Shown in pieces: positions 5,479-40,001 of a stretch of 64,000 nucleotides of DNA. The DNA is from a virus (taxonomy: Duplodnaviria > Caudoviricetes). Every line of letters begins with the position of its first letter. Positions within the stretch are counted from its first letter, which is position 1. The position numbers and the translations under genes were made by a program. The notes beneath the pieces are model-generated. The model had not been told where the DNA came from. It did not search any database and saw only the letters and a program-made list of their open reading frames with translations. The stretch is from the IMG/VR virus record IMGVR_UViG_3300020046_005360; one strand, 5' to 3'.

Positions 5479-6099
5479 TTATCTTAAGCAGCACATTCCT
5501 GTCTGAGAGCAAACAATTTCTGATATTATTTCGTTTAATTTATCGTATTTAGAATTAGTTTTTGGTATATAATTTTCATTAAGACCTAAAGGTTTAACGA
5601 ATGCTCCTTGTGTTGATGGTTCTGATACTATATCCCAACAAACTAAAGAAAGGTCGTCTTGAACTTCTACAGTACCTTCACCTAAACTTTGCACTGAACC
5701 CATAGCTCTAGATGATATACCTATTTGCACTCCACCTTTTACTAATGCTTTTACTATATTACCTGAAGGGGTGTCTAATATTAAAAGCTTAGCTTTTACA
5801 TCATCTCCATCCCACCAAACCTCTGTTATTCTGTGGCAAACGTTTTTTAAATTGACAACTTGACTATCAGGGTGATCTAATTCTCCTGTTGCTCTATTTT
5901 CAACAACGGGACCATTTTTATAGTTTTCAATTTCTCTTTCAAGTATATTTTTGGGGTAAATCCTTCCATTTTGATTTTTAGCATCAGCACGTTGAATAAT
6001 ACCTTCAAGAATTAAATCACCACTATTATGTTTAATACTCTCATTAATAGATTTAGGGTCGAGTTTAAGTGGAAAGTGTTCTATTAATAATTGCTTCAT
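5479..6099 (-). CDS. gp21: Prohead protease, T4 gp21-like
   Basis: NGRIYP, GELDHP (catalytic His), GISSRAMGS (catalytic Ser) and DIVSEPS motifs. Confidence 0.93.
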   Translation of the reverse strand: MKQLLIEHFPLKLDPKSINESIKHNSGDLILEGIIQRADAKNQNGRIYPKNILEREIENYKNGPVVENRATGELDHPDSQVVNLKNVCHRITEVWWDGDDVKAKLLILDTPSGNIVKALVKGGVQIGISSRAMGSVQSLGEGTVEVQDDLSLVCWDIVSEPSTQGAFVKPLGLNENYIPKTNSKYDKLNEIISEIVCSQTGMCCLR

Positions 6100-7337
6100 T
6101 ATACTCTACTTTTAGTTAATTGAACGCCTTTAGTTCTAGCATTATTTATTATACCAGCAGCTTCATTATCATCTTTAGCATATTGAACATTACCCGCTTT
6201 ATCTTTTACCACAACAGCTTCTTCCATACCATATTTACCACTTGTAATTTTATTTAATTCAGTAGCAATTTCATCTAAGACATCATCATCTTCTAAATCA
6301 TGTTCAGTTAATCCCCAATCTTCAACTATTTGTCCTACAATTTTTCTTTGTTGAGGAGTTAATTCATCTAAATCTAATTCAGGAGCTCTTTCACAATCAG
6401 AACATTCTTCTCCTTCTAAATCCTCTTTTAAACTATTCATTAGTTTATACATTTCAGGAACATCATCTTCCTCCCAAATTTCCATATCTATCATATAATC
6501 TACCAAATCATCCCAACTATTTATAGATAAGACATCTTCATCTTCATTTTCTTGCGAAATTAAATTTTTAAAATTTTGAAACTTTAAAGGATTATTTACT
6601 TTTATTTCTTTTAATTTTTTATTTTGACTTATAAGTTGTTTTCCCCCTGCTTGTTGATTATTATTAAATGTAAATAATATATCTCCTTCATAACCATCTT
6701 CTATATTTTCTATTTTTACATCATAAGGTTTTCCTAATCGTACTCCAAGTATTCTATCCCCAATTTGAACTTTAGAAGGATCAAAATCTGGTATATATTT
6801 ATTTAATTTCCATATCTTGTTGGGGGTATTTACTTTTATTTCTTTTAATTTTTTTAATTGATTTGGAGCAGTAAAGTCTTTTTTTAATTCTTCTGGTCTA
6901 AGATTTTCTTTCTCTGTTTTTTTCTCAGCATCAGAATAACATTTTTTAGTGTAGTAGTAAGGGTCAGAAGTAAGATTTTTTAATACTTTACGTTGTGTTG
7001 AAACCATTTCTTCTTCTGTAGGCATGTTTTGACCAACAGCAAGTTGAGTTAATTCCAATTCATAGTTGATTCCTTTTCCATATTCGTATGGTGAAACTTG
7101 GTCAATCGTAAAAGATTCAATTTCTGGTAGTTTAGGATTTTTATCTGCTTTATATTTTGGGACTAAATCCTTATTTTCGGTAATAATAGATTTTGATTTT
7201 AGAATTTGAATGGTGTCTTTCAACGAGTTAAATTTAGTAATCATAGGAAGTCTAGGATCACGACGTACTTCGTAAAGGAATTTTTCTTCGCTTATAATAC
7301 CCTGTACTAATTGATTATATAGTGTTTGTGCTGTCAT
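6099..7337 (-). CDS. Head-associated protein carrying two EIKVNxP modules
   Basis: Lies in the head cluster; KKLKEIKVNTP and KKLKEIKVNNP each start a distinct segment. Confidence 0.6.
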   Translation of the reverse strand: MTAQTLYNQLVQGIISEEKFLYEVRRDPRLPMITKFNSLKDTIQILKSKSIITENKDLVPKYKADKNPKLPEIESFTIDQVSPYEYGKGINYELELTQLAVGQNMPTEEEMVSTQRKVLKNLTSDPYYYTKKCYSDAEKKTEKENLRPEELKKDFTAPNQLKKLKEIKVNTPNKIWKLNKYIPDFDPSKVQIGDRILGVRLGKPYDVKIENIEDGYEGDILFTFNNNQQAGGKQLISQNKKLKEIKVNNPLKFQNFKNLISQENEDEDVLSINSWDDLVDYMIDMEIWEEDDVPEMYKLMNSLKEDLEGEECSDCERAPELDLDELTPQQRKIVGQIVEDWGLTEHDLEDDDVLDEIATELNKITSGKYGMEEAVVVKDKAGNVQYAKDDNEAAGIINNARTKGVQLTKSRV

Positions 7338-8332
7338 TTATTTTTGGTTTATTATTTTATTCAAATCTGAAATTAAATCTTTTTTATCTTGATTATCTAA
7401 TTCTTCCCACCATTGTCCTTGGTCTGCAAAAGTAGGGTACCCATACATTTCGAGAGTATTATCAGTTTCTTTTTCACTTACTTTATCCCCATCATCATTA
7501 ATTTACGTAAATCCTCAAGTTCTAAAGTGACTATATTAGGGTTATTTATTTTTATCTCGTTTATTTTAGAAATATTTGAAAATGCTTCTTTTAGTTTATT
7601 CTGAATTTTATATAATGAATCTTTAGTACGTTTTAGATATTCTATTTCCTGATCATTTTCCTGTAATTCACCTTTAATACGAGTAGTAAATTCAATAAGA
7701 CGATTTACTTCATCTAATTTTAATTGTATCTCTTTTATCGCGCGATGAAGGATTTCTCTTGGTTTAGGTTTAGAAGTAGATTTTTTAAATTGGGTGTAAC
7801 GAGATTCTGATAGTGTATTTTTTATTTGTAATGATTTGTTATTTTGTTGTAACCAATTTAATATCTTATTAACATCATTGGATTCGAATTCTGGTTCTGT
7901 TGTATAATCGTCTCCCGGTTTATTGAAATCGTAAATCTCAAATTCTCCATCAAATTGGTTTAAATCTTTATATCTTCTTATGACAATATTATCTTCTAAA
8001 AATATTTCACCTTGATCTTTTAGATTTAAAATAGCGTCTTTTAATTCTTGATTATTTGGATTATTAATTTTGATTTCTTCCAAATGTTCTCCTTTCCACA
8101 AATCTTTACTATTTAATCTATCTTTAGGGTCAACTATTTTAAACTTCATAGTTTTAGTATACATGTTTGGTTTAGGAGATGATTCGAATCCTGTTGGTGA
8201 GTTTTTATCTTTTTTGGTTGGTTTACGGAATGCTTTTTTAGTTAAATACCCTCCTGCGTCACCTGATGTAGATGTCTCTAGTAATTCACGGCAGTAGGCC
8301 TTGATTGAGGATTTTAAAATTTTATTATCCAC
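7338..8332 (-). CDS. Head-associated protein with two EIKINNP modules; last module apparently frameshifted (ORF as read is 7478..8332)
   Basis: The -1 frame from ~7500 reads NDDGDKVSEKETDNTLEMYGYPTFADQGQWWEELDNQDKKDLISDLNKIINQK*, ending flush with the next ATG. Confidence 0.6.
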
Positions 8333-9174
8333 TATAGTCTAGATATTTCTTTATTTAACTCAGTGTATTGAAGTAATGATACAACATAGTCGTCTTTCAT
8401 TTTTTTAGATTCAAGAATAGGGTCAATTAAACTAATTATCTCATTTACTTTTATAGTAACAACTTGATCATCAATTTTTGATCTGTTTTCTATTAAGTCT
8501 GATTTTAGTTTATTGAATTCTTTATTTATAAATTCTTTTAAAAATGAAGAGTTTGATATATTGTTGATATATGTTTTAAGTATATTCTTTTGATTTTTAT
8601 CTAACCCATCATATTTCTCGTTGAATTTTTCTAACATCACAGTATAGACTAGATGTCTTTCACCTTTCTCAAGATGAGATAATTCTTGATAAATTTGAGT
8701 TTCATTCTCTAATTTTTGTTCAACCAAATAATCAATTATATTATCTTTAGAAGATATTAATATATTAGGGTTTGGATTATCAACAAAATTGGATTCTATT
8801 AAAGTATATATTGAAGCCAATACTTTATAATTATCTAAAGATGCTTTAAAGAAATCTTCGATATCATATGAATTTTTTATCTCTTTAATTAAATTATATT
8901 TTTCACTATTTAATTTCTTTCTATCTAAACGTGAAGACAATTCTGATATCGTATTAATTACATTATTAGCTTTACTTTCTGTTAGATTTTGGGAGCTTAT
9001 TAAAGTTTGGTATAATCTATTTTCTTTAGATATTTCTGTATTGGTAAAATATTTTTTTAAAATACCGATAGCCTTAGACTCGTTTGTAGTAATAGTTTCG
9101 TTTGTGATTTTTCTTACTAGGAGTTCAAATAATATTCCAGAATTTTTGTACTTACTATGGGATATTTTATTCAT
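8332..9174 (-). CDS. Hypothetical protein in head cluster
   Basis: 280-aa helical ORF directly after portal, preceded by a TATTTATA motif. Confidence 0.6.
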   Translation of the reverse strand: MNKISHSKYKNSGILFELLVRKITNETITTNESKAIGILKKYFTNTEISKENRLYQTLISSQNLTESKANNVINTISELSSRLDRKKLNSEKYNLIKEIKNSYDIEDFFKASLDNYKVLASIYTLIESNFVDNPNPNILISSKDNIIDYLVEQKLENETQIYQELSHLEKGERHLVYTVMLEKFNEKYDGLDKNQKNILKTYINNISNSSFLKEFINKEFNKLKSDLIENRSKIDDQVVTIKVNEIISLIDPILESKKMKDDYVVSLLQYTELNKEISRL

Positions 9175-9199
9175 TAATATATCAATTTACTTATAAATA

Positions 9200-11113: not shown

Positions 11114-11137
11114 ATTTATTTTATAATTTATTTAATT

Positions 11138-13918
11138 TTAGCCTAATAACCAGGTTAAGTCTTCTACACCCCCATGTCCATCTTGCATGCGATATGGATT
11201 TTGTTCATATGGATTATTATATACAGCAGGAGTAGCATAATTTACACTTGTGAAACCATTTAATACTGCTCTCGATAATTCTTCACTTTGTTTTTGATAC
11301 ATTAGTGTTGTTTCTCTCAAGAATAAAAATATTCCAATAGGTAAAACTAAGTCATCATTATGACCTTGTTGTGCTTGTGGTCTACCATTTTTATATATAA
11401 ATGTTCTAATCTCTTCTAATGCACGTTTTGAAAATATATCAACTGAATATTCGTTCATATACGAAATTAGTTTTGAGATGACAAGTGGTCTTGTCTTTTG
11501 GGTCATAGAAAATCCAGGAACCATACCTACATTACTATTATACTTAGATAAATATTGCTCCGAATCAATAGGGTTGTCTATTTTTGGAGAATAATATAAG
11601 TTTTTATATTCTTTGTCTATCATTCTACCTACAACGTCCCATCCTATACTTGCATTTTCGATAACACACAAAGCGTTATTCCATTCAACACAAGCTGCAT
11701 GTATAACATTAGCAAAATCTTTAGTAGGTAATTGAGATTTAAATTCAGCTACTTGACGACATAATTCTATATCAAAAACATGGAATGTAGAACTGTCTGC
11801 TCCATCTCCACGAGCAACATCGGCAATAAGTGCGTAAGATCGAGAATAATCAGGTATTTCAAATATCCAATATTCTCCATTTAACCCTCTACGTTCAAGA
11901 GGTTCTCGTGCTATATTTTTAGTATAATAATTTAATACATCAGTATCGATGACCGATTCACCACTCGTGATGAAATCTGCGTCACAATTATGTACTATAC
12001 CATACTCTGTTACATAAGTGTGTGTATTTTCAACTTCAAAATTATATACTTGTATTTTTTCTGATGAAGGATTTAATTGTAATATAGTTAATGGAATCCC
12101 ATTATCAATCATAAATTTAGTAGTCTTTCTATTATTAACTACTGTATTATAATTTTTTATTCTCTTACTAAATATTTTTTCATTCGAATCAATCTTAGTA
12201 TTACTATAAGTTAATATAGTACTATTTTTACATTGATATTCTTTTCCTAATATAATATTAGTACCTTCTTTTTTATTTATTGATATTGTTGTATTATATA
12301 ACCCCAACAAATTACTTATATATAAAGAATCATACACTAGTCTTTCAGATGTTAAACCTAATTTACAATTGTAATCAGATTTTAACATTCCATCTCCAAC
12401 CATTATACCATCAAGTATACCTTTTAGAGTTTCTTTATTACTATTTTCCCATACAAAAGAACTTATATGTTTATCTTGACAATATTTTCCTCCATCAATA
12501 CATAACTCTATGAATTTAAGAAATATTTGGTTTTTAACATATAAATTAGCTCCTTTATCTCGTTTACTAAGGTAATGAGAAAATATACTTATATTAAACT
12601 TTTTATTAATATAATTTTGTAATATTAAAGGCCATGAATGTTCTTCACTCTCTGTTTCTCCATTATACGAAAATGAAACTACATTATTCCAATAACTACC
12701 TTCAGATAAAAAACAACCTATAATAAAACCTAATTCATAATCAAATTCTATATGTCGATGTACGTAAGATTTTTTATTAATCCAAATTGATTCATCATTA
12801 GATTTTAGAGGAAAATATTGTGGATTATTAACTTTGATATAATCTAATAAATCTATTTTGGAAGGATTATCATACTGATTTATGTTAGTTGGAAATAACT
12901 GTATATATTGATTATGATCATATATACTTTCAACTGTAGTCCATTTATTAACAATGTTTAAGAAAGGATGATTACCTGTTGTATATTTTTGAATATTATT
13001 AATCCCATTTTTGATTTCATATAAATTGTTTTCCTCTATATGATTAAATGTTTTTAATACCTTATTAAAAGTTCCATCATGACTTAATACTATATCTCCT
13101 TCTTGGATGTCTTTAATATATTTAGGTCCTAATTTTGTATACACAATTGTATCTCCTGAGAAACATTCTTGTGCTGCATGTTTTACACCTAAATCTCTAT
13201 CTTGTTGGTCTCTCCAAGTTTGGTCTCGTTCTGGATGGACAGTCCAAGGAAGTAAAAGTGGAACAAAACTGTTTAATTTCTCTTGTGCTTTGGTAAATTC
13301 TTTATAAAACCAATTACCCGTTCCATTTGGTGATGATAATGCGATACAAGAACCCCCAGTAGCTAGGGTTTGTTGAGCACCAGTAAAGATTCTTTCAATA
13401 TTATCAATAAATGCGGCCTCATCTATTACAAGTAAAGTAACGGCTTCAGATCTTGATGCATTATCAGTTGCGGGTTTAGCTTGTATTTGAGAACCGTTTA
13501 CTAACTTAAGTAATAATTTATTATTCTCTGTATCTTTTAATCTTAACCAAGATGGAAGTTGATCGTATGAAAATCGTACTTTAGTAATTAAGTTTTTCGC
13601 TGTATCTTGCGTAGTAGCTAATACAAGAATATTCTTATCCTTATGGAATAACATTAACCAAAGTGAGAAAGCAGAAACTAGGGTTGATATACCTAGCTGC
13701 CTCGATTTATTAATTATACTCCACTCCCCCTTTTGAAAACGCCTTAATAGTGTTTCTTGGAATGGATATAGATTAAATAACATCCTACCTCGTTGTGGAT
13801 GTTGTATATAATAATATTTTTTACAGAAGTATACAGGGTCACTGGCACATTTATAAAATTCGTCTTTAACTAATTCCTTAAATGATTTTTGTGGTATTAT
13901 ATTTTCTTCTTGTGCCAT
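11138..13918 (-). CDS. gp17: Terminase large subunit (gp17-like) with intein
   Basis: KSRQLGIST, IDEAAF, SSPNG ATPase motifs; ADVARGDGAD and HNDDLV nuclease motifs. Confidence 0.95.
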   Translation of the reverse strand: MAQEENIIPQKSFKELVKDEFYKCASDPVYFCKKYYYIQHPQRGRMLFNLYPFQETLLRRFQKGEWSIINKSRQLGISTLVSAFSLWLMLFHKDKNILVLATTQDTAKNLITKVRFSYDQLPSWLRLKDTENNKLLLKLVNGSQIQAKPATDNASRSEAVTLLVIDEAAFIDNIERIFTGAQQTLATGGSCIALSSPNGTGNWFYKEFTKAQEKLNSFVPLLLPWTVHPERDQTWRDQQDRDLGVKHAAQECFSGDTIVYTKLGPKYIKDIQEGDIVLSHDGTFNKVLKTFNHIEENNLYEIKNGINNIQKYTTGNHPFLNIVNKWTTVESIYDHNQYIQLFPTNINQYDNPSKIDLLDYIKVNNPQYFPLKSNDESIWINKKSYVHRHIEFDYELGFIIGCFLSEGSYWNNVVSFSYNGETESEEHSWPLILQNYINKKFNISIFSHYLSKRDKGANLYVKNQIFLKFIELCIDGGKYCQDKHISSFVWENSNKETLKGILDGIMVGDGMLKSDYNCKLGLTSERLVYDSLYISNLLGLYNTTISINKKEGTNIILGKEYQCKNSTILTYSNTKIDSNEKIFSKRIKNYNTVVNNRKTTKFMIDNGIPLTILQLNPSSEKIQVYNFEVENTHTYVTEYGIVHNCDADFITSGESVIDTDVLNYYTKNIAREPLERRGLNGEYWIFEIPDYSRSYALIADVARGDGADSSTFHVFDIELCRQVAEFKSQLPTKDFANVIHAACVEWNNALCVIENASIGWDVVGRMIDKEYKNLYYSPKIDNPIDSEQYLSKYNSNVGMVPGFSMTQKTRPLVISKLISYMNEYSVDIFSKRALEEIRTFIYKNGRPQAQQGHNDDLVLPIGIFLFLRETTLMYQKQSEELSRAVLNGFTSVNYATPAVYNNPYEQNPYRMQDGHGGVEDLTWLLG
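11987..13165 (-). mobile_element. Intein (393 aa) with LAGLIDADG endonuclease in TerL
   Basis: Begins CFSGDT after ...AQE; ends VYNFEV...GIVHN followed by C(+1)DADF; internal FIIGCFLSEGS and GILDGIMVGDG. Confidence 0.93.
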
Positions 13919-14880: not shown

Positions 14881-14882
14881 TG

Positions 14883-14933: not shown

Positions 14934-14934
14934 A

Positions 14935-19477: not shown

Positions 19478-19523
19478 AATATACGAATATTTTTATGGGA
19501 AAACAAAGACCCTTTCGGGTCTT
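19478..19523 (-). promoter_or_regulatory. Hairpin followed by TCGTATATT putative early/host-polymerase promoter
   Basis: AAGACCC/GGGTCTT stem at 19506-19523; motif at 19478-19486; same arrangement near 33718, 40016 and 42789. Confidence 0.55.
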
Positions 19524-19528
19524 GTGAT

Positions 19529-21907
19529 CTAAAGTAATCCTGCGCGATGCATGAGACGTTCTCGAAGGAATTGTTCTTCAAAGTCTTCTTCATCGTCCTG
19601 ATTATCAAGATGTGTATCTATCCTATCTGAAACATATTCTAGATCTTGTAATTCTTCTGGAGTAAGTTCATCCATTCGAATAATATATTTATCAAACCAT
19701 TTTTGGTCAACACCTTTATCTTTCATAAGTTGTTTTAATGGGTTTGGATTATTTACTTTAATTTCTTTAATTTGGTTTATTGATTTAGAAATTTTATAAT
19801 TATTTAAATCATCTTTAGGGATAAATATATGAACATCTTCATCATTTTTATGATAAAATATATAATCTCCTTGATCTTCACCATCGAAAATATAATCATA
19901 TTTTCCATAATCCCCATCATATTCGTATATATCATATATATTTCCTTTTTGGAGATAAAATGGTTTATTGATTTTAATTTCTTTTATATCACTTTTACCA
20001 CTATTAATTTCAAGTTCAGATGAAGGGTATACTCTTCTTGGATCACTACTGAAATCTGGGTATCCACTTATTAAAGGTGTACCTGCTACAGAAGAAGTAT
20101 TTCCATCTATACCTTTTTGTACTACTTTGTTATTTTCATCAACTAAAACCCAATCTTCATAACTATAGTCTTCACCTTTTAGGGGTAGGAGTACTAATTT
20201 TCTACCTTTATCTTCTATAATATAAGGAAGAGCGTATAATAGAGTTGAATATTGTTCTTTCCCATTTACTTTTTCAGCTAAGTTTGTAATAACTTTACGT
20301 TCTTCGGGACTAAGTTGATTCCACTCTTTGGCTGTAATAGGTTTTGGGTTAATATCTTGAACAGGCATATCTGCAGAAGTAGATAATTCTTCGTCACCAA
20401 TATTTGTATCCTTACCAAATTCCCAAGGTGTAAACAGTTTTGAATAAATTTCAAATATTTGTTTTTGTTTTGGATCCTTAATATACTTAATAGCTTGAGG
20501 AGGTAAGTAATCTAGATTTTTTAATTGTTTTTGTACATAATTTTCTGTAGCTTTGGGGCCAAAGAATTTTTCTATATATTCAAATGTAAGATTGTCGTCG
20601 AATGTTTCTAGATATTTTTGTTTAGCTTCGTCATCTAAAAATTTAACGTAAGGTAAAGGTATAGGATCCTTAGAATAATTTGTATGTCTGAAACGGAATG
20701 CTGCATATCTTTTTGCTAGTCCTTCGTTATCTTTTAAGTCCGCATAAGGGAATTTTTGACCATAATTTATGGCTAAGTTCTTTAATTCTTTATCTAATAT
20801 TTTAAGAATTTCAGGTGATAAAGATCCCGCATTAGCTTGAACATAATTTTGTTTATCTTCGTAATCTAACTCACGGAAGTCATTTGCAGATAATCTTTTA
20901 CCTCGCATTGCGGCACCAGAAATCTCAGCTTTAGAAGGATCAACATATTTAAAAATATGTTCTAAATGTCCTATTTTAGGCCAAACTGGTGGAGCTGTTG
21001 TTTTAAGTTTTTCCCAAGGATGAAATTCTTTATCTCCACTATTTTTTGCATCTGTAATCCAATATTTTTTATTTCCTTCACCAACATGAATTACAAAAGC
21101 GTGATATGGATCTGTATCGGGGAGACTTCTATCAAATACGAAATAAAACATACGGTTTGTACCTTCCATAAAACGATACCTATCATACATTGTATTAGAT
21201 GGTTGAGCTATACACCAACCATATTTTTTCCTACCACCTTCGGAAGGATTATAAGCGATACATTTATGTTGTGCATCTCCTTTATAAATTTCGATACCAT
21301 CTTTATCATACACTTTATCTGCGTCTGTAGTAGCGGTATTTTGATCACCTTCTTCCCCAACTTTAGCTTGCATAGGGAATAAAGCATCTAACATATGTTC
21401 CATCTGACCAAAATCCCAAGCACGAGGGTCTAGATATGCATCGTTAGGAATAAGACGTTTTGGGACTAATTTTTGTACTTCTTCTTTGCTATAATTTCCA
21501 TCTTCGGTTCCGTTCGCTAAGGCGTATTTAAGGTTACGTCTGTTATTCATAAAACGAATTACGTAGCTCGTTACATCACCTTTATCCATACGTTCTTTTT
21601 CTACGAACATCTGGATAGCATCTTTTTTTATCTTATCCTCTTTTTCAGGTAAGGAACGCAGTAAGTTAACCATATCAGCCCAAGAATACTTATCTATATT
21701 AAGATAATTTTGACCTGTTTTTAGTTCGTCGCTAAGGGCTACTTGTTGTAGTTTAGAAGATAAACCTGATTTAATCTGATCAAAACGTTGTATTACTTGT
21801 CTTGCAAGATTATCGTCGATTTGAGGTGATGTTTTCTTCCATCTATCTATTGTAGTTTGGATAGTCTTGTCTGAGTATTCTAGTATTAATATATCTGTTA
21901 GTTTCAT
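19529..21907 (-). CDS. Large hypothetical protein with MKLTDILILE leader, WCI-motif domain and two C-terminal EIK[IV]NxP modules
   Basis: GWCIAQ...YDRYR...FYFVFD; EIKINKP and EIKVNNP; ends RLMHRAGLL. Confidence 0.65.
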   Translation of the reverse strand: MKLTDILILEYSDKTIQTTIDRWKKTSPQIDDNLARQVIQRFDQIKSGLSSKLQQVALSDELKTGQNYLNIDKYSWADMVNLLRSLPEKEDKIKKDAIQMFVEKERMDKGDVTSYVIRFMNNRRNLKYALANGTEDGNYSKEEVQKLVPKRLIPNDAYLDPRAWDFGQMEHMLDALFPMQAKVGEEGDQNTATTDADKVYDKDGIEIYKGDAQHKCIAYNPSEGGRKKYGWCIAQPSNTMYDRYRFMEGTNRMFYFVFDRSLPDTDPYHAFVIHVGEGNKKYWITDAKNSGDKEFHPWEKLKTTAPPVWPKIGHLEHIFKYVDPSKAEISGAAMRGKRLSANDFRELDYEDKQNYVQANAGSLSPEILKILDKELKNLAINYGQKFPYADLKDNEGLAKRYAAFRFRHTNYSKDPIPLPYVKFLDDEAKQKYLETFDDNLTFEYIEKFFGPKATENYVQKQLKNLDYLPPQAIKYIKDPKQKQIFEIYSKLFTPWEFGKDTNIGDEELSTSADMPVQDINPKPITAKEWNQLSPEERKVITNLAEKVNGKEQYSTLLYALPYIIEDKGRKLVLLPLKGEDYSYEDWVLVDENNKVVQKGIDGNTSSVAGTPLISGYPDFSSDPRRVYPSSELEINSGKSDIKEIKINKPFYLQKGNIYDIYEYDGDYGKYDYIFDGEDQGDYIFYHKNDEDVHIFIPKDDLNNYKISKSINQIKEIKVNNPNPLKQLMKDKGVDQKWFDKYIIRMDELTPEELQDLEYVSDRIDTHLDNQDDEEDFEEQFLRERLMHRAGLL

Positions 21908-21910: not shown

Positions 21911-22183
21911 TTAATATTTAGGATATAAACCTGTTTTAATAAAAGTTAAATTATGATCAAAATCATTTTGATCAAGATAACCAATATTAATTAAATAATT
22001 CACTGCATCTTCTGGAGTATTCTGGTCCTTAAAGTCTAATATTTCATGGGGTTCATACTCCTGGTCTTGCATACTTAATATATTATCTTCTTTCCATTCA
22101 TTAAAATATGGATATATAGGATTGTTTACTTTTATTTCAGTTATTATACCAGCTAGTTGTTGTAATCTTTTTATTTCGTTCAT
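21911..22183 (-). CDS. Minimal cargo unit: MNEIKRLQQLAGI leader + EIKVNNP module
   Basis: Direct translation; acidic payload. Confidence 0.7.
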   Translation of the reverse strand: MNEIKRLQQLAGIITEIKVNNPIYPYFNEWKEDNILSMQDQEYEPHEILDFKDQNTPEDAVNYLINIGYLDQNDFDHNLTFIKTGLYPKY

Positions 22184-24359: not shown

Positions 24360-25910
24360 TTATTTGTTTAATAAAATTTCTAAGTCTTTATATAATTGTG
24401 TTTTCTCTTCTTGATCTAAAATATTAAAAATTTTTTCATTTTTGATTGGATTTAAAAATACACCCTCACTAAAACCATATTTATTTCCTAATTCTTCAAG
24501 TTCTTCATCTATCTCAGGAAACGTGTCATTTTCTTCAAAATAATCTTCAATTTTATTATGTAATGAATTATATAAATCCATAAGTTTTTTAGAATCAATT
24601 AATGGATTATTTATCTTTATTTCCGAAAGTATTCCAGCTAATTGTTGTAATCTTTTTATTTCGTTCATTGTATTTAAATTATTTTTTTCTAAATATAGAA
24701 TACCATTTTTTTCTTTAACATTATAATGACCCCAACTATTTTTTTCAATATATTGTTTATAGGTATTATTTCTTTTTTTATGAATATCACTAGGGATATC
24801 ACGATCAGGATAATTTATAATTATAACATTTGGGTCATATTTACTAAAATATTTTTTAGCAACATTAAAAACATTATTTAATATTTTTAAATATAATTGT
24901 ATATTAGATTGTTCTCCAGTATTTCTTAATTTGGTAGTACCATATTCTTCATTAACAGAAAAAGATAATATACCAACTTTTTGAAATTTTTCGGGTATTT
25001 CATCTTTTAAATCTTCATAAAAATGTTTGTCTCCAGTCATTAAATTTTGTAAATGAGTTCCATATATTTTATCTATATATTCAAATGATACTGTAGGATT
25101 TACAGATAAAATAACTTCTATAGTATTACCATCTACAGTAAATGTTGATTTAGTAGTATTAGATACATCCTCAAATGCTTGTGTTTGTTTTTCATCTGTA
25201 GGATTTAATTCTTGGTTTATTTTTATTTCTCTTAAAAATGGGTCGATCTTGTACTTCTTACCGTCCATATGAAGTGTCTTTAAACCATCCAAATTTAACA
25301 TTCTGTAGCCCTTAGGACCATTTCCAATTTTAAGGTCGTATACGGGAACAAGTCCTTTATCTTTGGGACTATATGGAAGTTCTCCACCAGACGTATACTT
25401 GCGCACACCTGTAAGGCCATTCATTGCGCGTAGTGATCCGTCTCCTCGTTTAGTGAATACAGCTTGGAATATTTTTCCTTTAAAGGAAAGTAATTCACGT
25501 GCTTGTTCTTTACTTATAGTAGTATACTCGGCTTGTTTTTTCTCTATTTCTGGAGAAATAGGTTCATCTGGAACAGGTATAGTTTCAGGGGCTACTTCTA
25601 CATCAGGTTCAACTGTAATTTCTTCTTCATCACTCTTTGGGATAAGTTCGTCGTCTGAAATTTTTATATTTTCCGGTTCTTCTTTAGGAACAGGAATAGT
25701 TTCAGGTTCTAATTCTACATCCTCTTCGTCTTTGTCTTTGTCTTTGTCTTTGTCCTCATCTTGTTCATTAAGACCTTGTGGAAATGTCTTTTTGTAATCT
25801 AAAACAGCTATTCTCTCCTTAATAACTCCATCGATATATTTTTTATCCCATTTTTTGTTTTGGGGATCTTGAAGGAGAATGTTTGATATGTCGGAAATTT
25901 TTATACTCAT
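24360..25910 (-). CDS. Mosaic protein: acidic linker, WYL-like SH3 domain, EIKINQ module and fused MNEIKRLQQLAGI-EIKINNP unit
   Basis: 'FTKRGDGSLRAM...VYDL...GYRM' resembles the DUF2693/WYL-like fold; DK microsatellite. Confidence 0.55.
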   Translation of the reverse strand: MSIKISDISNILLQDPQNKKWDKKYIDGVIKERIAVLDYKKTFPQGLNEQDEDKDKDKDKDEEDVELEPETIPVPKEEPENIKISDDELIPKSDEEEITVEPDVEVAPETIPVPDEPISPEIEKKQAEYTTISKEQARELLSFKGKIFQAVFTKRGDGSLRAMNGLTGVRKYTSGGELPYSPKDKGLVPVYDLKIGNGPKGYRMLNLDGLKTLHMDGKKYKIDPFLREIKINQELNPTDEKQTQAFEDVSNTTKSTFTVDGNTIEVILSVNPTVSFEYIDKIYGTHLQNLMTGDKHFYEDLKDEIPEKFQKVGILSFSVNEEYGTTKLRNTGEQSNIQLYLKILNNVFNVAKKYFSKYDPNVIIINYPDRDIPSDIHKKRNNTYKQYIEKNSWGHYNVKEKNGILYLEKNNLNTMNEIKRLQQLAGILSEIKINNPLIDSKKLMDLYNSLHNKIEDYFEENDTFPEIDEELEELGNKYGFSEGVFLNPIKNEKIFNILDQEEKTQLYKDLEILLNK

Positions 25911-25911: not shown

Positions 25912-26205
25912 TTATTTTGATGGAGTTATTTTTGTTAATTCATCTTCCCAAAATTCTATTATATTACCACCATCTTCTTCATCCCAATCATCTTCAAAAC
26001 CATTTGGATCCATTTTAAAAAATGCAGACTTATTATTTTCAACAGGATTATAACCATCAAATTCAACCCCAGTTTCTGATATATTTTCTCCTTCCAAATC
26101 ATATTTTTCTCCTAATCTTAAATTAGAGAATTTTACGTTTGGATTATTTACTTTAATTTCAGTTAATATGTCAGCTAGTTGTTGTAATCTTTGTATTTCG
26201 TTCAT
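25912..26205 (-). CDS. Minimal cargo unit: MNEIQRLQQLADI leader + EIKVNNP module
   Basis: Direct translation; very acidic payload. Confidence 0.7.
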   Translation of the reverse strand: MNEIQRLQQLADILTEIKVNNPNVKFSNLRLGEKYDLEGENISETGVEFDGYNPVENNKSAFFKMDPNGFEDDWDEEDGGNIIEFWEDELTKITPSK

Positions 26206-29530: not shown

Positions 29531-30312
29531 TATCTTAGATCTAATTTATCTTTAGGAATTTTGATAAATTTTAATTCATCATCCCCAGTGATTTCATAAG
29601 GAATATTATGTTTATCTAACAAAGAAGTTAATTTATCCATTTGTTCTTGTTCTACTTCCCTATCTTCTTCCTCTTCAAATAAAAATTCCATTTTTATGAA
29701 TCCAGGTTCATCAACATAAGGTTCAGTACCCCACCAAGTTTCCCCATCTTTGGATAATGAAACTACTTTTAGTTCTCCATCATCATCATCTTCATCATAA
29801 TCAAATTGAATTTTTCCAGGTGAGTTTACTTTTATTTCACTAAAAGTAGAATTTTGATCTGCTACAGTATATTCTTGTAATGTTAAATCATACCCAGAAC
29901 GCAATGCTTCTGCTTGGGCTTGTTTGTAACTTTGAGGTAATTCTCCTCCAAAAAAATCTAATATATGCATGTAATCATTAAACTTTTTTAATTGGGGTTG
30001 ATTTACTCTTATTTCACTCTGAATTCCAGCTAATTCCTGCATACGATCTACTTCACCTCCATATACAGGTTTTTCTCCACGAATAATTCGTGCTACGTTT
30101 TCAGGATCAGCTCTATCTAATACTTTATTTCCACGAGCAACTTGATCTTCATCTTCAGTTACTTCAATATCACCATTAGCTATTCTTAATAATATTTTAT
30201 CCAATGTATCTTTAGTTAAACCTTTTGTTGTACCTCCTGGAGCGTAGCGTGAATAACCTTTTTCTTCCAATAGTACTTCTTTAATTATATTTCTTAAATG
30301 CAATTTTTTCAT
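29530..30312 (-). CDS. Protein with MKKLHLRNIIKE leader, RMQELAGI motif and two EI[KR]VNxP modules
   Basis: DRMQELAGIQSEIRVNQP and FSEIKVNSP. Confidence 0.65.
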   Translation of the reverse strand: MKKLHLRNIIKEVLLEEKGYSRYAPGGTTKGLTKDTLDKILLRIANGDIEVTEDEDQVARGNKVLDRADPENVARIIRGEKPVYGGEVDRMQELAGIQSEIRVNQPQLKKFNDYMHILDFFGGELPQSYKQAQAEALRSGYDLTLQEYTVADQNSTFSEIKVNSPGKIQFDYDEDDDDGELKVVSLSKDGETWWGTEPYVDEPGFIKMEFLFEEEEDREVEQEQMDKLTSLLDKHNIPYEITGDDELKFIKIPKDKLDLR

Positions 30313-30335
30313 ATTAATCTTTATATATAAATATG

Positions 30336-31016: not shown

Positions 31017-31017
31017 A

Positions 31018-32689: not shown

Positions 32690-32694
32690 AAATT

Positions 32695-33514: not shown

Positions 33515-33523
33515 AAAATTTAT

Positions 33524-33697
33524 TTAATCATTTAATATTTGTTGATCATTTATATTTACTAATACTGCTTGATAATGAAATTGTCCATCACTATAAGGTC
33601 CTCCTAAAAATTGAACGCTAGGGTTGTTTTTTTGGAAATTTTGGACTTCAAATATAAGATTACCTACAGAATGTCCACTTAATATTGTATATATCAT
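33524..33697 (-). CDS. 57-aa hypothetical protein (DUF1737-like)
   Basis: Own translation MIYTILSGHS...FLGGPYSDGQFHYQAVL; downstream of CGTATATTTA. Confidence 0.55.
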   Translation of the reverse strand: MIYTILSGHSVGNLIFEVQNFQKNNPSVQFLGGPYSDGQFHYQAVLVNINDQQILND

Positions 33698-33762
33698 AAT
33701 ATGTATTTTTATTTGAGTAAATATACGACCCGTCTTTAGATAAAAAAAGACCCTTTCGGATC

Positions 33763-34876: not shown

Positions 34877-34900
34877 TTTAAAGTATATAATATAAATATA

Positions 34901-35479
34901 TTATTTATTTTTTTCTTTCGCTTCCTTGATTTGTCTCTTCATTTCTTTAATATAATCATGGTCAATTCCTCCTCCTTGCCATGTTTCACGTACGCCGTCT
35001 TCTGTTATAAAATCTTCATTTTTAGAATTAGCGTATTCGTCAAGAGCCTTTTCAAACTCAGTTAAATGTGAAGTAAAGTTTTTAGACATAAGATCTTTTT
35101 GATATTCTTCAAATTTACCTTCAATTTTAAGATTAGTTTCCATCTCAATTACACAATCAAAACATTTTCCATGTATATTATACATTTTTTTATTTAGATC
35201 ATATATTTTAAAATGATTTTTACAACAAGGACAAACTAATGGATATTGACCATATTTTTTAAGTGAATCGTATTTTGTTACGGTTTGTTTGATCCCATTC
35301 TTTATTACCCATTTCTTACCATCTTCTTCCCAAATATCACCTTCTATATGTTCTTCTTGTTGTTTAGAATACCCTGTTTGAGTTTTAGTAGTATCACCAT
35401 AACGTTTAGCTGTTATATTACGAATACGATTTAAATCGGACTCGTTCCATTCTTTTTTTAATAATGTATCTTTGCTCAT
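34901..35479 (-). CDS. Hypothetical protein with CxxC/CxxC
   Basis: EGDIWEEDGKKW, CPCC and CFDC. Confidence 0.6.
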   Translation of the reverse strand: MSKDTLLKKEWNESDLNRIRNITAKRYGDTTKTQTGYSKQQEEHIEGDIWEEDGKKWVIKNGIKQTVTKYDSLKKYGQYPLVCPCCKNHFKIYDLNKKMYNIHGKCFDCVIEMETNLKIEGKFEEYQKDLMSKNFTSHLTEFEKALDEYANSKNEDFITEDGVRETWQGGGIDHDYIKEMKRQIKEAKEKNK

Positions 35480-35619
35480 TTTTTGTTTGGGTCTTGATAA
35501 AGATTTATATAAGTTGGAATATTTCTTCTTTCTTTTGAAGATATATAATTAGCAGCATCTATTAATTTTTTTAATAATTTAACTTCTCTACATTTTATAT
35601 TTGGATTATTTACTTTCAT
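35476..35619 (-). CDS. 47-aa micro-ORF starting MKVNNPN
   Basis: Own translation; ATGA overlaps with both neighbours. Confidence 0.7.
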   Translation of the reverse strand: MKVNNPNIKCREVKLLKKLIDAANYISSKERRNIPTYINLYQDPNKK

Positions 35620-36164
35620 AAACCTAGTTTTTGTAATTCTTGTATAATTTCTTGTGTATTACCTTTATAAAGTAAACCTATCCCATTTCGAGCTTTCCAA
35701 GCCTGTATTGTGTCTTCACGATCGTCTATTAAAATTTGATTTGGACCAGATAGATCTGATTTACGTTCTGCAGATCTGAATTCAATATCATAATCACCTA
35801 AATTATCTTGAACCCAATGGGTTTTACCTTCAACCGAAACATTATTTCGTGATGGTGCAGTAAGAATAATAGGATTATATTGTTTAATATAATTCCACAA
35901 TTCTTGTCCTTCAGGCATCCAACTCATTCCTCTATAAAATCGCATACCGACCTCTTCATCAATAAGTGACCAGAATTTTTGTAATCCAATCTTAGGACCA
36001 AATTCCCTCTCGGCCCTAGCTCTATATTCAGATGGAGATAATCCACTAAAATGTTCGAAGCGGGATTCAAAGTCACATAAACAACCATCCAAATCTTGGT
36101 AAATTTGATATGAATCTTGCATATCTTCTAATAATAATTCATTTAATGTCATAACTTTATTCAA
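35616..36164 (-). CDS. HAD-family 5'(3')-deoxyribonucleotidase-like protein
   Basis: DLDGCLCDF, ILTAP, K..W and LIDDR motifs. Confidence 0.85.
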   Translation of the reverse strand: MNKVMTLNELLLEDMQDSYQIYQDLDGCLCDFESRFEHFSGLSPSEYRARAEREFGPKIGLQKFWSLIDEEVGMRFYRGMSWMPEGQELWNYIKQYNPIILTAPSRNNVSVEGKTHWVQDNLGDYDIEFRSAERKSDLSGPNQILIDDREDTIQAWKARNGIGLLYKGNTQEIIQELQKLGL

Positions 36165-39036
36165 ATATTTCGGGGTTTTCTCTACTAAATTTACGCATCA
36201 TAGTAGCTGCAGTTGAATTACATTCGTTCTCCCATTCATCTCCATCTTGACCAGATTCAGGTTTTAGTCTACCTTCTATATCTTGTTTTAAATGAACCAT
36301 TTCATGAAACATACTTCTTGTAATATCTGCTAAATTACGATTATAAGTAACAACTCTTATACTTTTATCACCGGGAGCATACCCACCAAATGAATGATGT
36401 TCTTTTGTATATTCAGGATTATTTATCAATATAACATTTGGTTTTGGAATATCCAAATATTTCATAGCATACTGTACTGCTTTATTTAATATAGGAGCAT
36501 GTTCTTTTTGAAATACTTCTTTTAATAATTTAGATTCATTAATAGTTTCAGGAACATCATTGGGATTAATTACACTTTTTGTTTTTAGAAAATTATTTAC
36601 TTCATAATCTCCCCACCAATTATTATATATTTTATTTGGATATCTTTCTATATTATGACTTATAATTGCAGGAAACGTAGGTGCTCTAAAATCATCTTTT
36701 ATTTCATTTTCACTAAGCCATTTATATCCATCTCTATTTAAAATAGGGAGTATTTTTAGCCAAGCTTCTTTATCTTTAACGTAATAATGCCAATTTTTAT
36801 CAGTTGGAAAATATAAACCCGGTTTATTCACTTTAATTTCATCAACTTCGTGATAAGGTTCTATAGTTGGTAATATATCTGAGATATATTGTTCCACACT
36901 TATTTCTTTATCTTTGTAAAGTGTTTTTACTTGTGGATATTTTGTTTGTAACTCTTGGATAAGTTTAAGAACACGAGTATTATCTCCCAACTTATCTAAA
37001 AATACATCAATTTCTTTAATATAATTTTTTGCGTTTGGAATTTCCTTTTTAGTACCCAAATTAATTCTTTCTTCAGATTCGTCTTGGGAAATTTTAGGAT
37101 GAACATTATTCGTATCCATTTCATCTGAATAGTAATAAAATGGAACAAATTTATAATTGTTTGATAATTTATTTCCGTCTAGTTTAATACGGACTAAAGA
37201 ACCTCCTATTTTAGGGTCATTTTTCCATAAATTTTTATTACGAGTAGTAGAAAAGTAATTTAAATATTCGATCCCCTTATCTTTAAAATCCGATTCTTTT
37301 TTTCTAAATGATTTAAAATCAGGACCTAAGTCATCAACTGCCGTTACGGAAGAATAAAATTTATTATCATCTAAAATACCTCTTAATCCATTAAGATTAG
37401 AAAAATGATACACATCACCTACGCTTTTAGCTTCATCTACACGTCTTGGTTCTCGTTTCTCCATCCCCATCATAATACCAACTAGTTTTGGAAGAGTAGA
37501 AGTATCTTTAATTCTATTATAGAAATCTGGAATATTATCACCTGACATATCATATCCATGTTTTTCTAATATATCACTTAATTCGGATTGGATTTTTACA
37601 GAATGAATTAAATCTTGGAAATCTTGGTAAGGTATTTTACCAGGCATATTTACTTTAATTTCTTCAATTGAAGCTAGTTTATCATAATATTTTGGATCTT
37701 CAAAGAGGTGATCCATAGCTATTTCTTCTGCTACGTCTTTAGAAGTGGTATGTTCTAATTCTACTTTAATACCTTTTTGGAGTTGTTTTCTTAGACTAGA
37801 TATATTAGCTTTATGTTTATCAGCTATGTCTTGTAAAGTTAGTCCAGAAGATAAACCACCAGGTATTTTTTCTTCATTTAATGAGTCTTTAACCACATTA
37901 AGCAATTCAGGGGCTTTATTAATCCATGATGATGAATCTTCGATATTAATATGAGGAGTAGATAAATATGGAGGTGGATTAGTTATTGCCGATTTTGATA
38001 CAACTTTATAATTATCATCCCAATCCTCAACTAATCTAGACCATTTAGGAACATTCATATTAGCAAAAGATGCTATTATTTTTTTATCTCTAACATCAAT
38101 TAAAAAATAATCTGGAGGTCTTTGTGTTGATTCTTGGGTTTTTAAAAATTCATTATATGAATGACTTTCTCCGTAAGCTTTTTTATAATTAAAGGGTTGA
38201 TTTACTTTTATTTCATTTAAATTTAATAAAGATTCATATTCTTTATAAATTTTATTTAATTCCTGTCCTGGTAGTGCTTCTAAAAATTCTTTAGTATTAC
38301 GAAAAGTTATTACATCCCCATATTTATCTTTAATATCTTCTATTTTATTAATATAATACAGTTGATCATTACTTTGAAGGGTTCTATATTTTTCTCTTAT
38401 TTGTTTTATCAAATTTATAACATCAATAACAGATTTAAATCCCGGAGTATTTACTTTTATTTCATGAAGTTGAAAATTCATTAAGAAATCGTCTACTTTT
38501 ATTCCTTCAGGAATTAAAGATTTAATTGCTAATCTATTTCTAATTCGTATAGCTTCACGCAATGAAGTAGATGATATGTCATCAAAATTACCAGCGTCTA
38601 TAATATCAACATTTGAATATTTTTCTCTATTTTCGTTTATAGAATTATATCTATCTTTTTCTCCTTTTCCATATACAACAATATAATTATTTGTTTTATC
38701 CTTAACTATATTATAAATTTCTGTTATAGGAGAAGATGAAGTAGATATTTTTACTTTAACATTTTCGGGCAATAAAGGAATATATTGTTTCCAAACTTTA
38801 AGTGATACTTCAGGAGTATATCCTTCACGTATATTATTTGAAATAATAATATGAAGTTCATCTACGTGTTGAGCAGCTCTCTTAGCAACTTCAACGTGAC
38901 CACGATGTGGGGGGGAGAACGAACCAGGATATAAGCTAATTATTTTAGCAGATTCGTGTATTATTCTTTCAGCAATTTTTTGTCCTAATCCTTCCATTCT
39001 GTTATTTCTTGTAATATTTTTTCTTTGGGATAACAT
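36157..39036 (-). CDS. Polyprotein-like mosaic: HxGH nucleotidyltransferase, four EIKVNxP modules, DUF5661-like, ART-like and HExxH domains
   Basis: PGSFSPPHRGH...ISST.LR; KGIKVELEH...IAMDHL.EDP.YY; YHF...STTR...ESEE; FHEMVH...E. Confidence 0.7.
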   Translation of the reverse strand: MLSQRKNITRNNRMEGLGQKIAERIIHESAKIISLYPGSFSPPHRGHVEVAKRAAQHVDELHIIISNNIREGYTPEVSLKVWKQYIPLLPENVKVKISTSSSPITEIYNIVKDKTNNYIVVYGKGEKDRYNSINENREKYSNVDIIDAGNFDDISSTSLREAIRIRNRLAIKSLIPEGIKVDDFLMNFQLHEIKVNTPGFKSVIDVINLIKQIREKYRTLQSNDQLYYINKIEDIKDKYGDVITFRNTKEFLEALPGQELNKIYKEYESLLNLNEIKVNQPFNYKKAYGESHSYNEFLKTQESTQRPPDYFLIDVRDKKIIASFANMNVPKWSRLVEDWDDNYKVVSKSAITNPPPYLSTPHINIEDSSSWINKAPELLNVVKDSLNEEKIPGGLSSGLTLQDIADKHKANISSLRKQLQKGIKVELEHTTSKDVAEEIAMDHLFEDPKYYDKLASIEEIKVNMPGKIPYQDFQDLIHSVKIQSELSDILEKHGYDMSGDNIPDFYNRIKDTSTLPKLVGIMMGMEKREPRRVDEAKSVGDVYHFSNLNGLRGILDDNKFYSSVTAVDDLGPDFKSFRKKESDFKDKGIEYLNYFSTTRNKNLWKNDPKIGGSLVRIKLDGNKLSNNYKFVPFYYYSDEMDTNNVHPKISQDESEERINLGTKKEIPNAKNYIKEIDVFLDKLGDNTRVLKLIQELQTKYPQVKTLYKDKEISVEQYISDILPTIEPYHEVDEIKVNKPGLYFPTDKNWHYYVKDKEAWLKILPILNRDGYKWLSENEIKDDFRAPTFPAIISHNIERYPNKIYNNWWGDYEVNNFLKTKSVINPNDVPETINESKLLKEVFQKEHAPILNKAVQYAMKYLDIPKPNVILINNPEYTKEHHSFGGYAPGDKSIRVVTYNRNLADITRSMFHEMVHLKQDIEGRLKPESGQDGDEWENECNSTAATMMRKFSRENPEIFE

Positions 39037-39728
39037 AAGGGTGAATAACCTATTTTATCTTCAATATTGTTTATTTTACTATCAATTTCTCCTAAAAGTA
39101 ATTTGAATTTATTTTCTTTTTCTAAAATTTGTTCTACTGTATAACTAGTTGTATCTGTTCTAAAAGAAGACTCAACTTGAATATTTTGTAATTCATATTC
39201 TACTGTTGTATTACCTGATTCAAATATTTCTACAAGATGCTCTTCTTCCTCAGTATACTCCGTCTCATAAATATAAATATTATCCTTTCCAAACATATTT
39301 ATATACTCGTCTATTTGAGAATATACTTGTAACCATCGTTCTAGAAGAACTTGTTTGGGTATTCTTCGTTCACGAGAAAAATTGCGTTTAAACGCGATAA
39401 TTGGATTACAATATACTATTATGACTTTATATTGGTATTGCTTATAATCGATGATTTTGCGCAGAGTCTTCGTATTTGAACCAACGGTTTGAAGTATAAA
39501 ATTCCACCCTTCATCCATTTGATTTGGGAGGACAGTTTTATACAAGAAATTTGATGCTTTGAGTGGATTATTATAAAATTCACTATCCTCATTTTCAACC
39601 CAAATATCAGGATCAAGTCTCCCCCACATTTCTGGTTCTTGAAAATCATCCCAACGACATAATTCTTCTTCAAATTGGGTTTTACCTGATGCAGGTGAAC
39701 CCATTATTAAGATACCTTTATTGCTCAT
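38985..39728 (-). CDS. P-loop kinase (AAA_33/zeta-like)
   Basis: GSPASGKT, LDPD and RNFSRER. Confidence 0.7.
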   Translation of the reverse strand: MSNKGILIMGSPASGKTQFEEELCRWDDFQEPEMWGRLDPDIWVENEDSEFYNNPLKASNFLYKTVLPNQMDEGWNFILQTVGSNTKTLRKIIDYKQYQYKVIIVYCNPIIAFKRNFSRERRIPKQVLLERWLQVYSQIDEYINMFGKDNIYIYETEYTEEEEHLVEIFESGNTTVEYELQNIQVESSFRTDTTSYTVEQILEKENKFKLLLGEIDSKINNIEDKIGYSPLCYPKEKILQEITEWKD

Positions 39729-39864
39729 GTTTCTTTTGGATTATTGTTTGTAGTTTTTGGCTATCAGAATTTAAAAATTGTGGGAGTATTTCAATCCATT
39801 TTCTCATTAATTCTCTCTTTTTATATTCTTCTTTAGCAGTAATGTTTGGATTATTTACTTTCAT
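39718..39864 (-). CDS. 48-aa micro-ORF starting MKVNNPN
   Basis: Own translation MKVNNPNITAKEEYKKRELMRKW...; TAATG coupling with the upstream micro-ORF. Confidence 0.7.
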   Translation of the reverse strand: MKVNNPNITAKEEYKKRELMRKWIEILPQFLNSDSQKLQTIIQKKHEQ

Positions 39865-40001
39865 TACTTATCATCTTTAAAAAGTGATTGAAATTTATCT
39901 GGTACCATAGCGCTTTTTCTTCCAGGAGAAGTTATATATTTTCTAAATTCTTCATATAACTTAGCTTTTGCTAATACATCGTTTGGGTTATTTATTTTCA
40001 T
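39864..40001 (-). CDS. 45-aa micro-ORF starting MKINNPN
   Basis: Own translation MKINNPNDVLAKAKLYEEFRK...; first gene after the CGTATATTTA motif at 40016-40026. Confidence 0.7.
   Translation of the reverse strand: MKINNPNDVLAKAKLYEEFRKYITSPGRKSAMVPDKFQSLFKDDK

Follow-up and report, generated by a model that had tools for sequence, protein, structure and literature searches.

This report concerns a 64,000-nucleotide (nt) stretch of an uncultured tailed phage (Duplodnaviria; Caudoviricetes; IMG/VR virus record IMGVR_UViG_3300020046_005360), hereafter the window, in which a short peptide recurs at the module boundaries of nine proteins. The peptide consists of a Glu followed by the hexapeptide IK[VI]NxP, hereafter the tag, and the open reading frames (ORFs) that bear it are called carriers. 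The interpretation that we favour, and that we hold to be rather more probable than all others together, is a capsid-cargo system of the T4 type: an address peptide mimicking the scaffold would bring the carriers to the head, an S77-family protease would cut them after [L/I]-x-E, and the modules would be released with IK[VI]NxP as their first residues.

The window corresponds to positions 102,777-166,776, read from the reverse strand, of a 175,065-bp genome (G000) that is rated complete and has 28% guanine plus cytosine (GC); nearly all window genes lie on one strand. A previous sequence-only reading had counted 19 tag copies in nine ORFs, and exactly this number was recovered by a six-frame scan of the window with E-I-[KR]-[VI]-[NK]-x-[PE], all of them on the minus strand (Table 1). 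Two are degenerate, namely EIKINQE in the carrier of 516 amino acids (aa) and EIKVKQP in the 622-aa carrier. Over the whole genome, a degenerate DNA pattern gave 22 matches on the coding strand, none on the other strand and none with the reversed-pattern control. The peptide motif has 25 sites in called ORFs, spread over 14 proteins (26 sites if the variant EIKVHNP is counted), versus 0.11 expected from composition, and 200 shuffles yielded a mean of 0.115 sites and a maximum of 2. The chance frequency that had been set beforehand as a refutation is thus far from what is found. No pentapeptides of the G000 proteome are more over-represented than EIKVN and KVNNP. Outside the window, PxYEI and xYEIY are highly over-represented as well, QYEIY being present in 23 copies in the related genome G001.

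The tag is always in the coding frame. Its codons for Glu, Ile, Lys, Asn and Pro match genomic usage, with ATA, ATT and ATC, AAT and AAC, and all four Pro codons represented; the sole oddity is the Val codon GTT, used in 0 of 17 cases versus 42% genome-wide. Since the tag codons follow genomic usage, selection acts essentially on the peptide, as the synonymous variation had already indicated. The modules opened by the tags measure 25-284 aa, a broader range than the 50-190 aa proposed before. They are mostly acidic, so that this part of the earlier description stands, but not always. The motif is not present in the capsid protein, portal, scaffold, tail genes or enzymes, in agreement with the statement that stand-alone enzymes and tail proteins lack it; the sole exception is an IKVNNP within the terminase intein.

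This intein (residues ~253-645, with LAGLIDADG motifs, CFSGDT...VHNC and a weak match to Pfam Intein_splicing) interrupts the large terminase (window 11138-13918, minus strand). It contains the tag-like LLDY-IKVNNPQYFPL, with Tyr and not Glu in front, which is kept in the 916-aa terminase of contig L091 and is the chief deviation from the otherwise regular Glu in front of the tag.

A sequence logo was anchored on [IV][KR][VI]N.P alone, Glu not being required, using 171 unique sites from this phage, its relatives and homologues of one carrier. The residue in front of this core (P1) is Glu in 98% of the sites, P2 is polar, and P3 is Leu (42%), Ile (34%), Val (5%) or Met (4%), 85% together. Likewise, I, L, F or V stands two positions before Glu in 24 of the 25 genomic sites, confirming the [LIVF]-x context described earlier. 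On the P' side, P4' Asn and P6' Pro are invariant, P5' is free (N 52%, K 24%, Q 8%) and the position after Pro is variable. The P3-P1 part equals the published logo of T4 gp21, which cuts after the Glu of L/I-x-E with 'extremely few other determinants' (PMC9026906). Related giant-phage proteases recognise A/S/G-x-E and their P1' preference is merely weak (PMC10052503). A 2A-like (NPGP) or Asn-Pro self-cleavage was considered and rejected: the motif is N-x-P with a variable x and a variable residue after Pro.

The candidate enzyme is encoded at the position where a gp21-like protease had been predicted, and its Pfam match (Table 1) places it in the Peptidase_S77 family. It shows a conserved L-I-E at residues 5-7, as T4 gp21 does near its N-terminus, and E175 is invariant in 52 homologues. 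In thirteen alignment columns (13, 14, 16, 28, 31, 71, 109, 118, 121, 124, 126, 183 and 190, numbered as in the window protein), the protease differs between four phages with the tag and five without it; for instance, D109 is replaced by P or N and A118 by E or S. They may be specificity positions or plain phylogenetic signal.

The gene order around the protease is terminase (with intein), portal, a 280-aa ORF, the 284-aa carrier, the 412-aa carrier, S77 protease, scaffold and gp23-like capsid protein, and it matches the T4 order 20-67-68-21-22-23. The 284-aa and 412-aa carriers would therefore take the place of processed core proteins. An alignment of eight phages shows an N-terminal capsid propeptide with the conserved sequence QAKQL[VI]xE↓[SNA]N (the arrow marks the predicted cut), devoid of the tag. 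Its distance to SVQPM is presumably about that of T4 gp23. In the gp68-like orthologues of the 412-aa carrier, that of Flavobacterium phage immuto among them, a plain [VIL][IL][KR]E↓[NG] occupies the point at which the present phage carries an insertion of two tagged modules. Similarly, the G001 orthologue of the 284-aa carrier has extra modules, each headed by E-VK[VI]N.P. Judging from these alignments, the Glu junctions predate the tag and have a broader distribution. Given the plain [ILV]xE of the capsid protein, the scaffold and the tag-free relatives, proteases of this family can evidently recognise their sites without IK[VI]NxP.

Among cultured phages, immuto and Microcystis phage Mel-JY01 come closest, with ~50% identity in protease and capsid protein; a megablast of 20 kb of the window against phage records gave no match. 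The tag was detected by an IMG/VR pattern scan in about two dozen AT-rich contigs of 25-30% GC. G001, G002 and G003 have 23 (often E↓VKVN), 10 and 9 matches, respectively, all on the coding strand. Contigs with proteases 71% and 65% identical to that of the window carry it, and five contigs at 61-68% are without it in the 12-20 kb around the head genes. On this distribution, the tag marks a subclade. The hosts of tag-bearing phages are probably AT-rich Bacteroidota. No other over-represented peptide was found in the tag-free relatives (immuto, Mel-JY01 and L092-L096), literature searches for the tag peptide returned nothing relevant, and a literature search for a virion proteome of immuto or Mel-JY01 found none.

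The scaffold C-terminus, ARMQKLAGI, is conserved in the eight phages compared, tag-free ones included. A peptide of the same type, I[KQ]R[LM]QQLAGI[IL][TS]E↓, precedes nine tags as a leader. It is located at the N-terminus of six small or medium proteins, where it comprises 16-18 aa (MNEIKRLQQLAGIITE) and covers residues 1-16 in five small ones; elsewhere it is internal. For instance, the 516-aa carrier has the internal leader IKRLQQLAGILSE in front of its second tag. The peptide can also form a tail: the 792-aa family (four orthologues) and the 284-aa carrier end in a scaffold-like sequence, the last 25 aa of the latter being a tag followed by LRKLMMMGIK. Their resemblance to the scaffold C-terminus suggests that these leaders are putative address peptides for the prohead core. 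As the address stands next to a tag as leader or as tail, a cut at the tag would free the cargo in either orientation. Other leader types in tag-bearing contigs are MIKLIDILRE↓, IQRLQQLAGILTE↓ and MDIAKQRNFLLSE↓. Phage immuto has one protein with RRMQKLAGIITE↓SQF, that is, leader plus I-x-E and no tag.

Comparison of six carrier families in this phage, G001 and G003 (and in G002 for the 792-aa family) showed that whole modules are inserted, lost or replaced, with the change starting precisely at a tag. Thus, insertions and deletions between the 622-aa carrier and its G001 and G003 orthologues start at tags. The tagged modules of the 792-aa family sit between the conserved core and the scaffold-like tail, the G002 orthologue consisting of core and tail with no module. 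The 59-aa middle cassette of the 260-aa carrier is identical in a second gene (genome ORF 168424-169389). Polyproteins reach five modules in this phage and seven in relatives. The claim that each tag opens a different segment holds in so far as cutting the carriers at their tags gives 105 segments in 68 BLAST clusters, and fails for some modules that are mutually homologous.

Homologues of this kind are the 14 members (alignment A1) of family A, a ~75-aa module in which the tag and 2-4 residues are followed by FPIxI...L...GYxW (for instance, L002:2078-2305, own genome 90965-91192, and 13 relatives). Family A modules exist both as stand-alone basic protein and within polyproteins. The model of this module (predicted local distance difference test, pLDDT, 71.5) is beta-alpha-beta-beta with tag residues 1-6 disordered, and Foldseek found no PDB fold match for it. 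No carrier matched internal-protein families in PHROG or Pfam, and no similarity to the T4 capsid-targeting sequence (CTS) was found. An ESM Atlas look-up of the 792-aa carrier returned unnamed viral clusters only, below 0.9, and a homologue search with the 90-aa cargo returned only itself.

The largest carrier, of 959 aa, is composed of an adenylyl/cytidylyltransferase-like domain, an 83-aa module, a DUF5661-containing module, an alpha/beta domain and a C-terminal HExxH zincin-like domain. Its AlphaFold model, built on a 28-sequence alignment, has confident domains at residues 30-189, 400-457, 534-728 and 841-959 (pLDDT up to ~90), one of the five modules being unresolved. The four tags (residues 192, 275, 459 and 733) all fall within segments of pLDDT<50 (190-206, 268-393, 458-466 and 729-756). 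In this model the tag is a disordered interdomain linker that lies outside the folded domains. By Foldseek, the N-terminal domain is similar to PPAT/NMNAT structures.

This protein has 6,432 homologues among 1.84 billion representatives, and its modules recur in many other combinations; of the top 150, 19 bear between one and six tags. Where the tag is missing, homologues still have DFLxNFQ[IL]HE↓ behind the nucleotidyltransferase domain and YYDKLxxIE↓ (or L.LEE↓) at the DUF5661 end, with unrelated sequence behind. Pfam DUF5661 (window 37660-37830, minus strand, residues 403-459) ends exactly at the conserved [IL]-x-E in tag-bearing and tag-free phages, and its boundary may correspond to a protease site. 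The last DUF5661 helix (KLASI) is similar to the scaffold-type peptide KLAGI.

The C-terminal domain (window 36160-36520, minus strand, residues ~841-959) contains an invariant HExxH...G.DG..ENEAN and is widespread; many of the top 150 homologues have it at their C-terminus or consist largely of it. It is not in Pfam at threshold. A PDB sequence search with this module alone gave nothing; a profile search did better, matching a neutral metalloprotease active site (E 7e-4), with weak, sub-threshold matches to putative metallopeptidase Pfam families. The domain is probably a zincin-like peptidase. A gene for a Zeta-toxin/AAA-like kinase (window 38985-39728, minus strand; PF06414, 2.9e-6) belongs to the operon of the 959-aa carrier and is located between this carrier and the micro-ORFs described below.

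Some ORFs begin directly with the tag, in the form MK[VI]N[NK]P. There are nine in this genome (three of them in the window, Table 1), four in G001 and two in G003. The nine are all basic, with isoelectric points (pI) of 8.9-9.9, in contrast to the mostly acidic modules of the cleavage type, and none carries the C-terminal EPxYEIY. The MKVNNP ORFs beside the 959-aa gene are syntenic in this phage, G001 and G003, and otherwise diverged. Met takes the exact place of the Ile that would be residue 1 after the cut. Such starts suggest that the hexapeptide works at a free N-terminus and not as a mere P'-side recognition element; its most likely role, on these sequences, is that of a free N-terminal signal on mature proteins. 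A more specific proposal, which we regard as possible and advance tentatively, is that IK[VI]NxP/MK[VI]N[NK]P is a dedicated address that needs a free N-terminus, exposed by the head protease on modules and native on small basic proteins. It would label a variable set of 30 or more proteins in each phage for one shared destination or use, for example staying with the DNA and being ejected into the host, or recognition by a single reader, and would constitute a second, post-cleavage signal on top of T4-type targeting.

With respect to expression, two promoter-like motifs were distinguished. The first, ATATTTATA, is present genome-wide in 40 copies on the coding strand versus 9 on the other, and 29 of the 40 are located 8-45 nt before a start. 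These copies precede baseplate, head and homing-endonuclease genes (window examples are upstream of 8332-9174, 54737-55729 and 61365-61706), and the motif probably represents a late promoter class. Six carriers form a gap-free block from 30333 to 19529, between a ATATTTATA-type motif and a terminator-like hairpin. The second motif, TTCGTATATTTAC, is found 25-35 nt upstream of ~30 gene starts, and its core TCGTATA has 49 copies on the coding strand versus 17 on the other. It is found mostly in the small-ORF region (window examples 40026, 33728, 42799 and 19486, minus strand), and it resembles TAnnTTTG, the -7 element of Bacteroidota. TATAAATA, the late promoter of T4, was rejected, being not enriched and without strand bias (54 vs 65), and a sigma-70 scan remained at shuffle level.

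Table 1. Positions of the tagged carriers, the tag-initiated micro-ORFs and associated features in the window
Feature	Position	Strand	Tag copies (codon positions)	Description	Basis
Major capsid protein	2513..4153	-		gp23-like	phrog_138 7e-68
Scaffold	4180..5283	-		gp22 position; acidic, Ala-rich, ends VLRMQQLAGIVK; no tag	sequence
Prohead protease	5479..6099	-		candidate enzyme cutting after Glu	Pfam Peptidase_S77 (PF03420) 3.3e-33; phrog_207 2e-57
Carrier, 412 aa	6099..7337	-	2 (6822-6842, 6588-6608)	gp68 position	six-frame scan, orthologue alignment
Carrier, 284 aa	7478..8332	-	2 (8057-8077, 7538-7558)		six-frame scan
Terminator-like hairpin	19506..19523	-		directly after 792-aa carrier	sequence
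Carrier, 792 aa	19529..21907	-	2 (19961-19981, 19745-19765)	643-aa conserved core, two tagged modules, C-terminus RERLMHRAGLL	scan, alignment
Small cargo, 90 aa	21911..22183	-	1 (22118-22138)	leader MNEIKRLQQLAGIITE, then IKVNNP	six-frame scan
Carrier, 622 aa	22230..24098	-	3 (23796-23816, 23316-23336 [EIKVKQP], 22464-22484)		six-frame scan
Carrier, 516 aa	24360..25910	-	2 (25209-25229 [degenerate EIKINQE], 24603-24623)		six-frame scan
Small cargo, 97 aa	25912..26205	-	1 (26140-26160)	leader MNEIQRLQQLADILTE, then IKVNNP	six-frame scan
Carrier, 260 aa	29530..30312	-	2 (29995-30015 [EIRVNQP, after DRMQELAGIQS], 29818-29838)		six-frame scan
Late-type promoter-like motif	30326..30333	-		ATATTTATA class, 21 nt before 260-aa carrier	motif scan
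Micro-ORF, 47 aa	35476..35619	-		starts MKVNNP, pI 9.9	ORF scan
Carrier, 959 aa	36157..39036	-	4 (38443-38463, 38194-38214, 37642-37662, 36820-36840)	five modules	Pfam, NCBIfam, AlphaFold
Micro-ORF, 48 aa	39718..39864	-		starts MKVNNP, pI 9.7	ORF scan
Micro-ORF, 45 aa	39864..40001	-		starts MKINNP, pI 9.6	TTCGTATATTTAC promoter-like motif 25 nt upstream

The T4-type cargo system would operate as follows. The carriers would be prohead-core proteins or polyproteins, some of them addressed to the assembling head by a copy of the scaffold C-terminal helix (RMQxLAGI), serving either as a leader (N-terminal or internal) or as a tail at the C-terminus. Within the prohead, the gp21-like protease would cut after the Glu of [L/I]-x-E, detaching the address and separating the modules. 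Each freed module would then start with a flexible IK[VI]NxP, a lineage-specific addition on the P' side that could act as an N-terminal signal for sorting, ejection, stability or partner binding. Over evolution, modules would be gained, lost and exchanged at the tags.

Several points weigh against this interpretation. Known S77-type proteases have a near-absent P' preference, and the invariant P1'-P6' stretch is not accounted for by cleavage alone. The MK[VI]N[NK]P-starting ORFs cannot be cleavage substrates and carry no targeting peptide, and no recognisable scaffold-like peptide was seen on the 959-aa or the 622-aa carrier. The operon of the 959-aa carrier begins with TTCGTATATTTAC, the motif typical of the small-ORF region, and most carriers sit among metabolic (enzyme) genes. 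Acidic modules are unusual as companions of DNA, the internal proteins of T4 being basic. Finally, the tag-bearing members are uncultured, and the cultured relatives immuto and Mel-JY01 have 0 tags.

The alternative that survives best, which we nevertheless consider unlikely, involves no cleavage: E-IK[VI]NxP would be a linear docking motif in linkers and at N-termini, by which a phage or host partner recruits the modules to one place, Glu and P3 being part of the motif or a helix cap. The disorder of the tag in both models (959-aa carrier and family A) agrees with docking, as does its equal conservation at the true N-termini, where there is nothing to cut; moreover, the clade also uses a C-terminal tag, EPxYEIY, on other proteins, seen among the top pentapeptides. 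However, [IL]xE persists at the same junctions in tag-free homologues from which the motif is gone. Besides, the stand-alone ORFs show the start Met in exact exchange, with Glu not kept, and the 16-aa leader that precedes the tag in five small proteins is what one expects of a removable propeptide.

Cleavage could also take place outside the prohead. The carriers would then be polyvalent proteins cut in the cytoplasm or after injection by another peptidase, either the HExxH domain of the 959-aa carrier or a host enzyme, and the tag would be its recognition site. A strict six-residue P' motif fits a sequence-specific peptidase better than gp21, and the invariant HExxH...ENEAN, with its profile match to a neutral metalloprotease and weak metallopeptidase Pfam matches, offers a candidate. 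Zincin peptidases are a hub domain of polyvalent proteins and have been proposed to release the other domains (PMC5512222). Nonetheless, the HExxH module was recognised in only one carrier of this genome, whose 25 sites are spread over 14 proteins, P3-P1 reproduce the gp21 logo exactly, tag-free relatives have these Glu junctions too, and the link with scaffold-like peptides is left unexplained, so that we find this possibility improbable. Least credible of all is that the conserved 21 nucleotides mainly serve as a recombination junction for module exchange between genes and phages, the peptide being a tolerated by-product: gain, loss and replacement of modules exactly at tags, the identical 59-aa cassette in two genes and the missing GTT (a hint of DNA-level constraint or shared descent) speak for it, but the other synonymous codons are at genome usage, no tag is out of frame or on the non-coding strand, P5' is free while P4' Asn and P6' Pro are invariant in the 171 sites, and 20 nt are short for homologous exchange.

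The T4-type cargo system has its nearest precedent in T4 itself, where IPI-III and Alt carry an N-terminal propeptide of 10-16 aa that ends in L/I-x-E and is removed by gp21, and where diverse, fast-evolving cargo is common only in its address peptide (PMC3012670, PMC9026906). The carriers would share with this CTS cargo a short propeptide ending in L/I-x-E, an S77-family protease and the presence of an enzyme among the cargo (Alt in T4, a nucleotidyltransferase-like module here). They differ in having no sequence similarity to T4 CTS or internal proteins, a leader that copies the scaffold C-terminus, polyprotein strings, mostly acidic modules and a conserved hexapeptide at the predicted mature N-terminus, which T4 lacks. 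T4 gp67 and gp68, core proteins that together with gp22 are cut by gp21 into several fragments, are resembled by the 412-aa and 284-aa carriers, located between portal and protease and with several candidate cuts. Unlike them, these carriers have extra tagged modules inserted at the ancestral site, in some phages only.

In giant phages such as phiKZ, 201phi2-1 and SPN3US, a gp21-related protease likewise cuts numerous head and ejection proteins behind a Glu, in some cases at multiple sites (PMC10052503); their P3 residue is small and their P1' preference weak, whereas P3 is Leu or Ile here. Polyvalent proteins are a further parallel, being multi-domain, effector-type mosaics predicted to travel with the DNA, frequently with a zincin-like peptidase and extensively shuffled (Iyer et al. 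2017, PMC5512222). A fixed junction peptide with the logo of a head protease is not found in the passages of that source that were read, and a good number of the present carriers are short proteins of only one or two modules. The 959-aa carrier is a large mosaic in the sense of polyvalent proteins, and the small carriers are not. We know of no mature N-terminus shared among the products of propeptide processing in giant phages.

Taken together, these sequences suggest a variation on the theme of T4 capsid targeting and polyvalent proteins, with a swappable library of capsid-loaded proteins. To our knowledge, it is clear in only a handful of phages, in essence through the 10-residue CTS of T4, how proteins are selected to travel in the capsid and into the host with the DNA. 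If the T4-type cargo system is true, it would provide a readable three-part code, consisting of a scaffold-copied address, a protease site and a conserved mature N-terminus, and the evolution of the cargo would proceed by module exchange at a fixed junction. The conserved neo-N-terminus, which is not explained by what is known of gp21-type proteases, could reveal a sorting or ejection signal or a portable head-loading tag. Injected cargo would then be predictable from sequence in uncultured freshwater and marine T4-like phages.

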